A DNA stretch of 64,000 nucleotides from NCBI GenBank assembly GCA_030390025.1, contig CM059432.1, positions 47,556,001-47,620,000 of the forward strand. Reading direction: 5' to 3'. The notes under the pieces were generated by a model. It was not told the origin of the DNA and did no database searches. It saw only the letters and a program-made list of their open reading frames with translations. The translations under genes were made by a program, and so were the position numbers. The DNA is from Squalus acanthias (taxonomy: Eukaryota). Shown in pieces: positions 405-30,575 of the stretch. Numbering within the stretch: position 1 is the first letter of the stretch; each line of letters begins with the position of its first letter.

Positions 405-3400
405 ATGATCTGGACTTGGATACAGGGTGTACAAATCAAAATTTCCAGATGACACAAAATACGGAGCATGGTTAATAGTGAAGAAGACTAAGTAAATGTA
501 GGAAAACATAGACTGGTTAGTAGATTGGGCAGATAGATAGATGAAGAATAATGCAGAGAAATGTGAGGTAATATATTGGGGGGGGGGAGCATAAAGAGGG
601 GAAGAATATATGGTAAAACCTTAAAAGGAATAGAGGAGCAAAGAGATTCAGGGATTCAGATGCACAAACCTTAAAAGGGTAGTTTAAATTGATCAAGTTA
701 TAAAACAAGCAGGGATCTTGGGTTTTGTAAGTAGGGATATAGAGTACAAAAGCAAAGAAGTAATGCTAAACCTATATAAATCATTTGTTAAGCTATCGTT
801 AGAACATTGTTAAGCTATCGTTAGAACATTGTGTCAGGTTTTGGTCACCTTACTTTAAGAAGGATGTGAAGGTCATGAAGAAGATTCAGAAGAGATTCAC
901 TAAGAAGATACCAGTGATGAGAGGCCTTAGCTATGAGGTACTTAAAGAAACTGGGAGTCATGTCACTAGAAGAATGAAAGTTAAGAGATTTCACAGTGGT
1001 ATTCAAAATTGAGAGGTTTTGACAAGATAAATCAGGAAAAATTATTTCATTGGTCAATGAGTTGGTAACTAGAGAGCATAAATTTAAGATAATCACTAAA
1101 AGAATCAAAAGGACAGGTTGCAACATTTTTTTTATGTAGAGGATTGTTAGATCATGGAATGCTCTACCAAAAGTGGTGAAGGTAAATCCATAATAGCTTC
1201 TAAGAGAGTGGAATATATGAAATAGAAAAAATTAAGAGAGTATAGGGAAAGGGCAGGAGAATAGGGCTAAGTGGATAACTCTTTCAGAGAGCAAAAGTGT
1301 GAGGGGGTGATTGGCCTCCTTCTATATTGTAAAATCCTATGATTCTATTCTGTATATATAAAATAATTAAATTGCATACATAACATGAACCTAGAATATT
1401 ACTTTAAAGTGAATTAAGATCAATAGAACTTATGGACATAAATTTATATTAGTAAATTGCAAATTTAAACAGATCTTAGGAAAAACTTAGTTACTCAAAA
1501 AAATTACACACATTTGGAATTATATACTAGGTAAAGTAATGGAATCAAAGACATCCAGGATGTTCAAGATGCAGTTGGATGCTCGGCTCGGTGAGTTGAA
1601 ACACTAGAGGAACATCTTCAATGGGCCAAATGGCTTTTTCTTGTCCTTTACTTTTTCTTGGATTTTAAACTTTATTTGGTTTATTTTTCTTGATTATGGA
1701 TTTGAACACTGTCAACGTAGATGTAGATATAATCCTGGAAATAATAAGGAATCTCAAAACAGATTGGACTGCAGGTTCCGATCGCATTACCCAAGGGTAA
1801 TTAAAGAGAGGGAAGCTGTGCTCTGTGAGCCCCTTGATTATATATTTAGCAGATCACTAGGGTCAAGGATTGTTGCCATGGACTGGAGGGAGGCTCATGT
1901 TATCCCAATATTCAAAAAGTAAGAAGCGAGAAATTATAGGCCATTAGCTCGATTTACAGGCAAGTTGCTAGAAGGAATCATTAGAAATACTGTGTATGAC
2001 CACCTGTGATGTGGACTGGGGTGGACAAATGTGAGAAGTCGCACAACACCAGGTTATAGTCCAACAGTTTTATTTGAAATCACAAGCTTTCGGAGCGCTG
2101 CTCCTTCGTCAGGTGAAGTCCACCTGGACAGAGATGGGGTTATAAGAGATTCTCAACATGGCTTCTGGAAAAGGTGGTCATGTCTTACCACCCTGATTGA
2201 AAATTTTGAGGAAGTTACGCATTGGTGGATGAAGGCCACTTGACATCATATACTTGGATTTTCAAAAATCTTTCGATAAGGTGCCACACAATATGCTACA
2301 TGATATCATAAGAGTCCAGTGGGACTCGAGGACAGACCTTAAGTTGGATAAGAAATTGGCTACATTCTCATAGGCTGATGGTTGTTATTAATGGTAGTGA
2401 TTCTGCGTGGAGATCAATTATTAGTGATGTTCCGCAGGGCTCAGTATTAGGACTGTAGCTCTTCACAATTTGTACTAATGATGTGGATGAAAGCGTTAAG
2501 GGAAACTGTCCACAAATTTGCGTATCATGCAAAGACGTGTGTGTGTTGAGCGGGAAAAAGATGAGATGTTATATTACATGAATCCCTAAATCCCCATCGA
2601 GTTGAATGGGCCTATATTCTCTGAACTTTAGAAGAAAGAGGTGTGATCTCATTGAAACGTCTAAAATTCTTAGAGGGCTTGACAGGTAGATGCTGAGAGG
2701 CTGTTTCCCCTGGCTGGAGAGTCTAGAACTAGGGTCATAGTCTAAGGATAAGGGATCAGCCATTTAGGACTGAGATGAGGAGAAATATCTTCACTCAGAG
2801 GGTTGTGAATCTTTGGAATTCTCTATCCCAGATGGCTGTGGGTGCTCAGTCGTTGAGTATATTCAAGACTGAGATTGTTAGATTCTTGGACACTAAGGGA
2901 ATCAAAGGATATTGGGATAGAGTGGGAAAGTAGGGTTGATGTAGAATTTCAGCCATGATCTTACTGAATGGCGGAACAGGCTCGAGGGGCCGTAGGGCCT
3001 ACTCCTGCTCCTATTTCTTATGTTATGTTCACTACCAGTAGCGAGAGGCTATTGCAAAAGCAAATAGAGTACTAGAATCTATTGCTAGGTAGATCCAATA
3101 TAAAACAAAAACCACTATATTGTCCTCGTGTAAGGCCTCATCTAAAGACTGTGTTCAGTTCTAGTCCCATCACATGGTGGAAGATACAGAGGCTTTAGAA
3201 AAAGTTCAGAGGAGGCCATTACATTGATACCTAGCATAAGAATTCTTTTCTTTCCACAAAGGGTCATCAATCTTTGGAACAAGTTGCCAGCTTGCGTAGT
3301 GAGTGCAGATTCACTGCAAGCATTCAAAAGGTAGTTGGATGAGTTCCTGACCTTGGCAGATATTGCAGCATATAAAAAGCAGGTGGATTATTGAGCGATG

Positions 3401-3635
3401 TGTCTCATGGTCACTGTGGTCTCCTGGAATTCATTTTGATCGCCTTCGGGATTGGAAAGGAACTTTTCAGAGTTATTTTTTTCCTAAATTGATCTAGGGT
3501 TATTCTCAATCTGGTTTTTTTAACCACTCCCAGGAGATTACATAGCTGCGGGTGGGTGGGGCACATTGGGGAGCCATATGAGGCAGGCTCGATGGACCAG
3601 CTGCTTTTTCTTGCCTGTCATTTTTGTATGTTCGT
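405..3635 (+). mobile_element. Cluster of degenerate or nested CR1 fragments
   Basis: DWREAHVIPIFKK, SQHGF, LDFQKSFDKVPH remnants; younger CR1 3' end at about 2605-3030. Confidence 0.75.
2007..2119 (-). mobile_element. 113-bp PLE 3'-terminal fragment carrying a hammerhead motif (2080-2116)
   Basis: Nearly identical to 29630-29756; flanked by 7-bp TSD CCACCTG (2000-06, 2120-26); interrupts a CR1 RT frame. Confidence 0.9.
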
Positions 3636-4388
3636 ATTTATATATTGAATATTTTTATTCGAACAGTGACTACTGTTGACACTAAAGCAACTGGCTTTGA
3701 GTTCATGATAAATTCAGTGCGAGGGACTGAACATATACAGAAAGAATTATTGAACCAACGAAGTACCCTGGATCATAGAAATACAAAGATGTTACCACAT
3801 GGAAACAAGCCATTCGTCCACAAACCAGTCTGCATCAGTGTTTACCTTCCACACAGGCATATCATCCTAATCGCATTCACCCACTGTTGCATATCCCTTT
3901 ATCTTCTTTTCCTTCATCTACCTTTCCAATCCATTATTTGCAAATATTAATTTAGCTCTCTCTTTTGGGTTTAGAAACTCTTCTTAACTAGTTCCAAAGA
4001 TAATTCCATTAGCACTCAATTTTTCAACTAAAAAAAATCACCAATATAAAAATGAAGAAAAACAAAACAAAAAAAGTCAAAATTAATTATAATTGTAAAT
4101 TATTCTAAGATACTGATTGCAAGGCATTTAATAAAATAAAGATACAACCAAAAATGAAACCCTTTGGAGGTTTAAAATACATAGATACATGTAAACTATT
4201 TGTAAGTCAGAGAGATCCCTAGTTTAGTGCTGATCATGTAGAACATAGAAATTGGGTTAAAACTGTCCAAAATCATCTCACTTTAGACCTTTAATGTTGA
4301 AAGAGACTAGAGACATTCATCCCATTTGTCTGAGCTGATTTCAATTCCTGTTGCAAAACAGAAAGCAAATCTCCCACAACACATCCAG

Positions 4389-5079
4389 GGGTAGAGTTTC
4401 AGCTTTGGGCACAATCGGGCGCAAATTGTGCTGGTTAGGTTACATTTCTGCTCAATCCATTTACAGAATCACAAATGTAAAATCTTCCATGAACCAGCGC
4501 AATCGATCAGCTTAATAGTGCGTAATTGTTTATTTATTTTTCTTTGCATTAAAAAAATATTTATTGATGTATTGAAGAGTGGTAACCTGGTGCAGTTTTA
4601 TTAATACAGCCAAAATGGGGTTATCACAAAAAGCATTTTAAATAAGGGTGTCTAGTCCTCCACCTGTGAGTAACCTGATTTTAAATCTCTAAAAATGACT
4701 TAAAAAAAACTATACTGAACCATTTACTAGTTTCATTGGTGTACACTAATTAGATTTTTAGTAAATTAAGTATGTTTTAATATATAAAAACTTTTAAAAC
4801 ATGCCTACTAGTGGCTGTGCGCCTAAGAAAACAAGCTCAATTTGAAGACTCTCCTCAAACCATCGCAATGGGCAGAAACTCGCCATCCTCATTATTTTGA
4901 ACGAGGTGTGGCCAGCTTCGGGCACAATGATTTTTAAACCAGCGTTAAAGATCACAGAAACTCGATTTACGCTTGACGTAACTTATGCTCGAGTTTCCAT
5001 GATGTTTTGTGCTGGTTCAGCCGATTTCACCCGGATTGCGCTGATAAAACCAGCGCAAACTAGTAGAAACTCTAGACCC
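4389..5079. mobile_element. MITE-like element
   Basis: Ends GGGTAGAGTTTC / GAAACTCTAGACCC; CAG on both flanks. Confidence 0.62.
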
Positions 5080-29716: not shown

Positions 29717-29753
29717 TCACAAGCTTTCGGAGCGCTGCTCCTTCGTCAGGTGA
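29717..29753 (-). ncRNA. Minimal hammerhead ribozyme motif (sense to WWP1 pre-mRNA)
   Basis: Reverse complement TCAC-CTGACGA-A-GGAGC agc GCTCC-GAA-AGCT-T-GTGA. Confidence 0.78.
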
Positions 29754-30297
29754 AGTGAAGAGATACATATCGGCACAGCATATATAGTCAGAGAGCACTG
29801 CCAGATGATTACAGTTAATCTTTCTAACTGCCCTTTATCACACCTTGGCAGAGAGATAATCACGGCAATCAAAGGTGTGGATGGTGTCCAAACAGGTCAG
29901 TCAGGAAAACATTACATCAAAGACAATGAGGTGGGGTCACAAGGGGTCAAATGTGGCAGATGCTGGGGTCTGTATGGAAAACAAAAAACTTTTTTTTGCT
30001 GGAAATCACAGCAGGTCCGGCCGCATCTGTGTAGAGAGAACAAGCCAACGACGACTCAAGTCTGGAGGACTCTACGTCAGGTGGGGTTACATGTAGCGTG
30101 ACATGAACCTAAGATCCCACCTCATTGTCTTTGAGGTAATGTTTTCCTGACTGACCTGTTTGGACACCATCCACACCTTTGATTGCCGTGATTATCTCTC
30201 TGCCGAGGTGTGGTAAAGGGCAGTTAGAAAGATTAACTGTAATCATCTGGCAGTGTTCTCTGACTATATATGCTGTGCCGATATGTATCTCTTCACT

Positions 30298-30334
30298 TCA
30301 CCTGACGAAGGAGCAGCGCTCCGAAAGCTTGTGA
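30298..30334 (+). ncRNA. Minimal hammerhead ribozyme motif (inverted arm copy)
   Basis: TCAC-CTGACGA-A-GGAGC agc GCTCC-GAA-AGCT-T-GTGA. Confidence 0.78.
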
Positions 30335-30575
30335 TTTCAAATAAAGCTGTTGGACTATAACCTGGTGTTGTGCGACTTCTCACATTATTATTTATATTCT
30401 TTGGTATGGTGGGAATGAAGCAAACAAGTCTGGCTATAGGACAGAACCAGTTACTAAACCAGAATATAATTACTATAGAGTATCAATAATTAGCAGGAAA
30501 TGTTTGTGTAAATTAAACACTTTTGCTGGAATGCTGTGGAGACCAAAGTGGGAAACAAAATGAAGCAATAGCTAC

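Follow-up and report, generated by a model that had tools for sequence, protein, structure and literature searches.

The window examined here is a stretch of 64,000 nucleotides from Squalus acanthias (assembly GCA_030390025.1, contig CM059432.1, positions 47,556,001 to 47,620,000 of the forward strand), and it contains part of the WWP1 gene together with several copies of a Penelope-like element (PLE). A preliminary description of this DNA had reported four minimal type I hammerhead ribozyme motifs in the WWP1 introns, and this observation is confirmed. WWP1 lies on the minus strand. Its HECT exon at 8982-9188 scores best against human WWP1 (120.7 bits, compared with 112.3 for WWP2 and 108.6 for Itch), and a comparison of the WW exon likewise agrees with WWP1 as the host gene. 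Beyond the window, the next exon is located 0.9 kb to the left and the final exon about 29.7 kb to the left. WWP1 exons flank all copies on both sides. All four motifs are intronic, with copies 1 and 3 oriented sense and copies 2 and 4 antisense to the gene. The features are as follows, where RT stands for reverse transcriptase, ORF for open reading frame, and pLTR for pseudo-long terminal repeat.

2007..2119, minus strand: copy 1, a solo insertion of 113 bp that runs from the putative RNA start (+1 = 2119) through the hammerhead into the long tail, with a small internal deletion
2000-2006 and 2120-2126: direct repeat CCACCTG (7 bp) flanking copy 1
2080..2116, minus strand: hammerhead 1, in sense orientation to WWP1, with the cut predicted between 2084 and 2083
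25358..26628, plus strand: copy 2, a 5'-truncated element with RT thumb, CX4CxxC linker, GIY-YIG end, pLTR and short tail
25349-25357 and 26629-26637: repeat of 9 bp flanking copy 2
25358..26310, plus strand: 3' part of the copy 2 ORF, in an open frame of 324 aa from 25336 that ends in GIY-YIG
26511..26518, plus strand: TATA-like box of the copy 2 pLTR, putative +1 at 26544
26548..26582, plus strand: hammerhead 2, antisense to WWP1, with a 3-bp stem I, loop AGA and C17
29618..29629: left target-site duplication of the copy 3/4 insertion, 12 bp
29630..30118, minus strand: copy 3, the long-tailed arm, with the last ORF codons, 3' region, TATA box (about 29786-29780), putative +1 = 29756, hammerhead and long tail
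29717..29753, minus strand: hammerhead 3, sense to WWP1, predicted to be sequestered in a 274-bp hairpin with copy 4
30116..30383, plus strand: copy 4, the short-tailed inverted arm, with TATA box (30265-30271) and putative +1 = 30295
30298..30334, plus strand: hammerhead 4, antisense to WWP1
30384..30395: right target-site duplication of the copy 3/4 insertion, 12 bp
2088-2112 (minus), 26551-26575 (plus), 29725-29749 (minus) and 30302-30326 (plus): hammerhead cores located by a pattern search of the window
30836-30952, 30516-30782, 28486-28599, 23780-23941, about 19805, about 19557, 13868-13972, 8982-9188 and about 5693, minus strand: WWP1 coding exons in frame, nine within the window, host span 5570..30952

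The four motifs are genuine, but they represent only three insertions because copies 3 and 4 belong to a single event as its two arms. These arms form an inverted repeat (274 bp, 98%) with a head-to-head junction that overlaps by 3 bp, and the whole is flanked by the 12-bp duplication. The site is empty in a related organism, in which a single 881-bp contig spans 29609 directly to 30385 (DNA runs X19 and X20, from one study). In DNA runs X21 and X23, contigs break at both edges of the site, which is compatible with either a filled or an empty state. Copy 1 sits within an older putative long interspersed element (LINE) fragment, as identified by eye.

A loose CUGANGA..GAAA pattern yields 10 matches in the window versus 5.7 ± 2.4 in shuffled sequences, which is chance level, and the four cores are near-identical members of one repeat. 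They carry the stem II (GGAGC/GCUCC), the loop of AGC or AGA, the AGCU, and the U or C at H17 that were initially described, and the two sense cores are indeed identical. The core CUGANGA...GAA with A15.1-U16.1 and H17, the stem I of 3-4 bp, the palindromic 15.2-16.2 and the lack of a helix III are all characteristic of minimal hammerhead ribozymes. Stem I does differ between copies in the reported covarying manner (UCAC/GUGA, 4 bp, versus UAC/GUA, 3 bp), but copy 2 is the only source of this signal within the window because copies 1, 3 and 4 are identical in the motif.

The parent element is very abundant. An exact 28-nt core has 18,654 matches in the 3.7-Gb genome and its reversed control has none, while an exact 31-nt tail has 65,488 matches genome-wide, or one per 57 kb. 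Over its last 141 aa, the ORF of window copy 2 is 96-99% identical to the 149 other genomic copies scored, and the 150 best-scored genomic matches as a whole reach 96-100%. Long frames of 780 and 822 aa match RVT_1 (Pfam, E=9e-8 and 2e-7), and the long ORFs, as read from sequence, carry a CX4CxxC linker and a GIY-YIG domain with two internal cysteines; Pfam returned no GIY-YIG match for the long ORFs and nothing for the ORF fragment in the window. The linker reads C-HGNL-C-KT-C in loci L193-L197, and its second cysteine is replaced by R in window copy 2. Furthermore, locus L433 is a pLTR-ORF-pLTR partial tandem whose two sense hammerheads lie 3.1 kb apart around a broken ORF, such that both pLTRs have a hammerhead. 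Other features of endonuclease-positive (EN+) PLEs are also present, including pLTRs, an inverted truncated copy, a one-sided tail, and a single ORF that combines RT with a GIY-YIG at the C-terminus. A CX2-5CxxC linker is common to the Neptune and Nematis clades (PMC8557442), and the linker motif suggests that this is a Neptune-like PLE. The initial proposal that the motifs are carried by a recently mobile PLE is thus borne out by the copy counts, the near-identical ORFs, the RVT_1 matches and the L433 tandem.

Several individual loci deserve mention. In the partial tandems at L174 and L217, the ORF at about +70 continues straight into +1 of another copy, with the joint at almost the same base in both, which suggests a template jump from the RNA 5' end. 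In L129 (G000:C1:889285-889431), arms of different subfamilies are arranged tail to tail about 85 bp apart, whereas the usual arrangement is head-to-head. L016 and L017, which are 16.7 kb apart on C1, have one insertion and its flanks in common, reflecting a local duplication or an assembly repeat, and independent insertions are therefore slightly overcounted.

The ends of insertions suggest where the element RNA begins. A TATA box starts at -30/-31 in 47 of 67 read-through contexts and between -29 and -35 in all 67, and it is followed by the word TC-A-CTTC, which we take to be initiator-like. The base before A+1 is C in 17,772 copies, G in 2,956, and A or T in 1,522. Among 100 listed of these 1,522 A/T cases, 31 are A, which corresponds to about 470 A overall, and many T belong to a subfamily in which T is the native base. 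Only 547 of the 17,772 have a purine one base further upstream. In the inverted arm, G before A is no commoner than A or C (10, 9 and 11), and so overlap alone would not be expected to give the roughly six-fold excess of G. An untemplated G is an accepted sign of a copied cap in L1 (PMC9341517). The 5' ends of 98 tail-anchored arms, mapped without gaps such that about seven read-through arms are misplaced, fall at -3 to +2 in 20 cases, further upstream in 48, inside the motif in 26 and near the cut in 1, with 3 unplaced. Copy 1 ends exactly at +1. Taken together, these ends indicate that the element RNA likely starts, capped, 7 nt before the core. On this numbering the hammerhead occupies +4 to +40, the predicted cut falls after +36, and the ORF AUG is at +128. 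Cleavage of a ribozyme placed in this way in the 5' untranslated region (UTR) would remove the cap. The TATA/initiator arrangement is not universal in PLEs, because the D. virilis Penelope promoter is TATA-less (PMC2377424). Subfamilies seen at L146, L188, L192, L193, L196 and L197 carry a short duplication immediately upstream of stem I, so that their core sits at a different distance from the putative start.

We consider it very probable that the motifs are the terminal-repeat hammerheads of three insertions of this Neptune-like PLE, where they likely serve the RNA of the element and are predicted to be inert in WWP1. Under such a scheme, the TATA/initiator promoter of a pLTR would produce a capped RNA starting 7 nt before the core, and the endonuclease of the element would open its target with a 12-13-bp stagger. 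Using both DNA ends as primers, RT would then start at two internal sites separated by about 35 nt, giving rise to the short and the long tail. Its template would mostly be uncut RNA, which it would copy as far as the cap, or beyond if an internal pLTR is used. The two cDNAs would be joined head to head, as in copies 3 and 4, whereas extension of a single end would leave a solo copy, as in copies 1 and 2. Ribozyme cleavage, after +36, would require two pLTRs to form a dimer, probably with help from protein, and would remove the cap.

To examine constraint on the motif, we collected 647 arms in 432 loci, of which 403 were parsed into 165 haplotypes. The loci were picked by patterns, so frequencies are biased, and the arm parser needs a near-intact first half of the core. 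In the 23 haplotypes used for covariation (recurrent types plus two window copies), the core, the bulged A and AGC-U are invariant except at N7 (A, C, G) and for U4C, and the G10.1-C11.1 pair is present in all 23. Among the 403 arms, variation falls on N7 (C 316, G 54, U 19, A 14), loop II (3-9 nt), H17 and stem positions, with H17 being U or C in recurrent types. The bulged A after A9 is found in every parsed arm, and AGCU in 364 of the 403, a sample enriched for selected mutants. Across the 23 haplotypes, 96.1% of stem cells are paired. One stem I pair is C-G in 14, U-A in 8 and U-G in 1; stem II shows wobbles at three of its pairs and a single double change; the stem I closing pair is broken in 6. 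Double changes affect 2 of 9 pairs and wobbles 3 more, slid controls score far lower, and none of 500 shuffles reaches the pairing or covariation score. Structural constraint, as had been suggested, is therefore borne out, with variation like that of a catalytic core and modest compensatory changes across genomic copies. A subfamily with CCGACGA (U4C) instead of CUGACGA occurs at L118, L141, L163, L169 and L172, amounting to 12 of 403 parsed arms; at L163, U4C is accompanied by a compensated stem II closing pair.

Insertion ends at the predicted cut give a fainter signal. Among tail-anchored copies, a purine precedes the first base of the 3' product in 604, and U or C in 63,702 (0.94% purine), with 284, 438 and 246 at neighboring control positions. 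Sampled cases were classed (72 at the cut and 50, 30 and 51 at controls), and substitutions and overlaps of at least 2 nt were removed. The corrected estimate is 310 (237-383) at the cut versus 97 (60-138), 190 (112-274) and 111 (77-147) at the controls. This 2-3-fold excess of 5' ends is a hint only, since it overlaps one neighbor, the flanks are purines in two sets and pyrimidines in two, and the classifier is imperfect; overlap with the inverted arm explains 14 of the 72 sampled cut-site cases. A strong peak of insertion ends at the cut was rejected, with 0.94% of copies purine-flanked and 1 of 98 arms within 2 nt. Both arms of one event ending near the cut were also seen but set aside, because nearly symmetric junctions are found elsewhere as well. 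More than 99% of tail-anchored copies read U or C at the cleavage base, so insertion ends at the cut are rare, and uncut RNA is the main template, as it likewise is for the anole element in vitro (PMC11167929).

These same data invite the thought that the motif is kept mainly as a structural or dimerization signal for two-ended insertion, or as a promoter element, and that catalysis is vestigial. The scarcity of cut ends fits this idea, as do the insertion of hammerhead mutants in vitro (PMC11167929), the proliferation of Naiad elements without hammerheads (PMC8557442), and the roughly 20 of 105 two-armed insertions that carry two loop variants. It is at odds with a pattern of variation that is that of a catalytic core, with N7 free and H17 being U or C in recurrent haplotypes, and with the local excess of 5' ends at the predicted cut. 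We regard vestigial catalysis as somewhat unlikely, but it is compatible with, and not exclusive of, the assignment of the motifs to the pLTRs of a PLE whose RNA they likely serve.

Several observations weigh against that assignment or parts of it. An Rfam scan of the window at E<=1 found no hammerhead. The number of covarying pairs (2 with a double change) is reached by 56 of 500 shuffles, and few independent events among related sequences are involved, which makes the support from covariation only modest. The downstream tail is invariant as well, so conservation alone is no proof of catalysis. Of 46 sampled junctions with G at -1, 27 are also open to the reading that the G was templated by the inverted arm, while the other 19 are not explained by the arm. 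Start, cap and cleavage are all deduced from the ends of DNA insertions, and the RNA contigs show no ends; these RNA runs are assembled contigs whose RNA status is mostly guessed and in which other copies swamp the WWP1 ones. Finally, the Neptune assignment comes from the linker motif rather than from a tree.

The two-armed insertions provide further insight into how the element might integrate. One long and one short tail are found in 233 of 243 head-to-head pairs. Duplications of at least 11 bp flank 189 of 239 two-armed insertions versus 1 of 500 shuffled controls, with a peak at 12-13 bp (143 of 239); this cut-off was used because 66 of 300 controls pass a laxer one of at least 7 bp. Once one mis-parsed pair is excluded, loop II length differs between the arms in 20 of 105 pairs with both cores, whereas any indel in the 61 nt outside the loop is seen in 8 of 105, and the discordance expected under random pairing is 0.56. 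Eighteen of the 20 loop-discordant pairs have duplications of at least 11 bp, and 5 of the 20 also differ at a linked stem II variant. These numbers can be read as implying that the arms usually derive from a shared source and sometimes from two templates, which might be separate RNAs or both pLTRs of a single tandem RNA.

Mismatched arms argue against pure fold-back, in which self-priming of one cDNA or antisense template would make both arms copies of a single molecule, as in the model proposed for inverted arms in PMC3846280. The shared loop length of 85 of 106 pairs with both cores, far above random pairing, and the many near-symmetric junctions speak for such a route, and loop slippage during copying may account for the remaining discordant pairs. 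Set against this are the excess of loop II discordance over outside indels, the duplications that flank most discordant pairs, and the five pairs discordant in stem II as well. Fold-back as the origin of the head-to-head arms is in our view unlikely.

Perhaps the tens of thousands of insertions constitute a fossil record of the Penelope cycle, in which the element RNA would be capped 7 nt before the hammerhead, dimer cleavage at +36 would act as a decapping switch for translation of the element itself, and every head-to-head insertion would be made from two templates copied separately. This extension is doubtful at present. If it were true, the small class of insertions that begin exactly at the cut would be evidence of germline cleavage, and the AGCU palindrome may hold two templates together in the manner of a retroviral dimer signal. 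The role of PLE hammerheads has been called unclear (PMC8557442), and the formation of head-to-head arms was left open (PMC3846280). With more than 60,000 young copies in one genome, both matters become testable by counting, and the start-site, two-template and cut-site signals are first steps.

It is very improbable that the short copies belong to an independent non-autonomous family, such as a retrozyme or an element resembling a short interspersed element (SINE), that spreads via small or circular RNA of its own. Many copies do measure only about 90-130 bp, and PLE-derived retrozymes are described in vertebrates, including one cartilaginous fish (bioRxiv 2026.07.22.740005). However, the 5' ends are heterogeneous, about half of the 98 arms extend upstream through the TATA region and some into the ORF, and copies that start at +1 lack a promoter of their own. 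Small tandem hammerhead units were found at none of the loci inspected and no copy in the window is tandem, although no genome-wide tandem search was made.

Least credible of all is the earlier suggestion that copies 1 and 3, which are both sense, pair via AGCU, cut the WWP1 pre-mRNA and affect its processing. In its favor, the two cores are intact, have the same sequence and lie in the sense direction, they can be arranged into a double hammerhead, and amniotes have conserved intronic hammerheads (PMC6155905). Against it, hammerhead 3 is predicted to fold into the long hairpin with copy 4 (pairing probability of about 1.0 for every sampled base), and copy 1 lies 27.6 kb downstream of copy 3 with seven exons between. 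The modeled dimer (-20.7 kcal/mol) gains no stability over two monomers (2 x -10.8 to -11.6) in nearest-neighbor energies, which leave tertiary contacts and proteins out of account. In a related organism the copy 3/4 site carries no insertion, copy density is in line with the genome average, and in published work a single minimal hammerhead was inactive and dimers were weak (PMC4209133), while the anole motif needed the protein of the element (PMC11167929). The hairpin is predicted because copies 3 and 4 are head-to-head arms, and in the WWP1 pre-mRNA the antisense of copy 4 is transcribed before copy 3. An enrichment of copies in WWP1 was considered and rejected, since four arms in 104 kb compare with 1.8 expected (P=0.11). 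The motifs are thus predicted to be inert passengers in the WWP1 pre-mRNA, and for WWP1 they matter little, being young transposon ends in introns at approximately the genome-average density.

Other features of the window are more peripheral. The copy 3/4 hairpin (29665-30386, 274 bp near-perfect) ends about 190 nt from a WW-domain exon in the WWP1 pre-mRNA and probably offers a substrate to A-to-I editing or to the processing of double-strand RNA; such hairpins exist at thousands of loci. A SINE-like repeat (24496-24970) shares about 90 bp with the element 3' region upstream of the pLTR (29960-30040), as if one had captured part of the other. Long plus-strand open frames at 9921-12208, 37801-39484 and 49036-50305, with 93% identity between the repeats at 10758-12044 and 49078-50065, seem to represent another young retroelement family. 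A weak Rfam match to mir-5014 at 60769-60896 (32.7 bits, threshold 101) lies over an inverted pair of LINE-like tails and is probably a chance hairpin.

The kind of hammerhead described here has been known since 2014. The literature searched, which covered few subscription journals and no supplements, held no report of PLE hammerheads in sharks, of PLE ends with a cap-derived G, or of arms made from two templates; the supplements of PMC4209133 and bioRxiv 2026.07.22.740005 may list this hammerhead family, and the putative start-site and two-template signals are without a match in what was found. The conserved intronic hammerheads of amniotes, such as that in RECK (PMC6155905), are also type I motifs in introns. 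Those are conserved single loci, whereas the insertions here are young and multicopy, and one of them, copy 3/4, is missing from the orthologous position in a relative (runs X19 and X20). We therefore do not consider the motif to be a conserved intronic hammerhead, nor is it evidently a retrozyme as these are portrayed in the available accounts (bioRxiv 2026.07.22.740005, PMC7229834, PMC6155905, PMC6765202).

Closer likenesses are found among PLEs. The pLTR of Adineta Pen2a (Arkhipova et al. 2013, PMC3846280) similarly has TATATATA and the initiator-like sequence TCACT, an inverted pLTR, a tail and a target duplication. Its promoter is putative and its inversion was ascribed to self-priming, whereas insertion ends and mismatched arms here point to an initiator start and two templates. 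With Poseidon of the green anole, PAc (Frangieh et al. 2024, PMC11167929), our element would share cleavage and extension of both strands, two internal RT starts that define the tail, and uncut RNA as the main template. The PAc ORF begins inside the ribozyme, whereas the ribozyme described here is confined to the 5' UTR, 90 nt upstream of the AUG. Neptune EN+ PLE units (Craig et al. 2021, PMC8557442) resemble it in having RT, a CX2-5CxxC linker, a C-terminal GIY-YIG, partial tandems, an inverted 5'-truncated copy, and a 30-40-bp tail at one end. Unlike those units, the shark insertions have clear 12-13-bp duplications and show no obvious microsatellite targeting in the loci inspected, and their clade is putative.

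The nearest relatives of the motif are the minimal hammerheads of metazoan PLE pLTRs (Cervera & de la Pena 2014, PMC4209133), which are also of type I with no closable helix III, a palindromic 15.2-16.2, a bulged base after A9, a G10.1-C11.1 pair, a short stem I and one ribozyme per pLTR. They too occur mostly solo or as close opposite-strand pairs and in many sequence families, and the layout of L433 is their canonical PLE arrangement. Cartilaginous fish are not named among the hosts in the accessible text of that report. Stem II is 5 bp here versus 7-8 bp in Schistosoma, and the copy number of more than 60,000 compares with 4,000-9,000 for coelacanth and Xenopus. Thus, the shark motif has the features tested of the PLE minimal hammerheads described in 2014, and would work in the way that they do.

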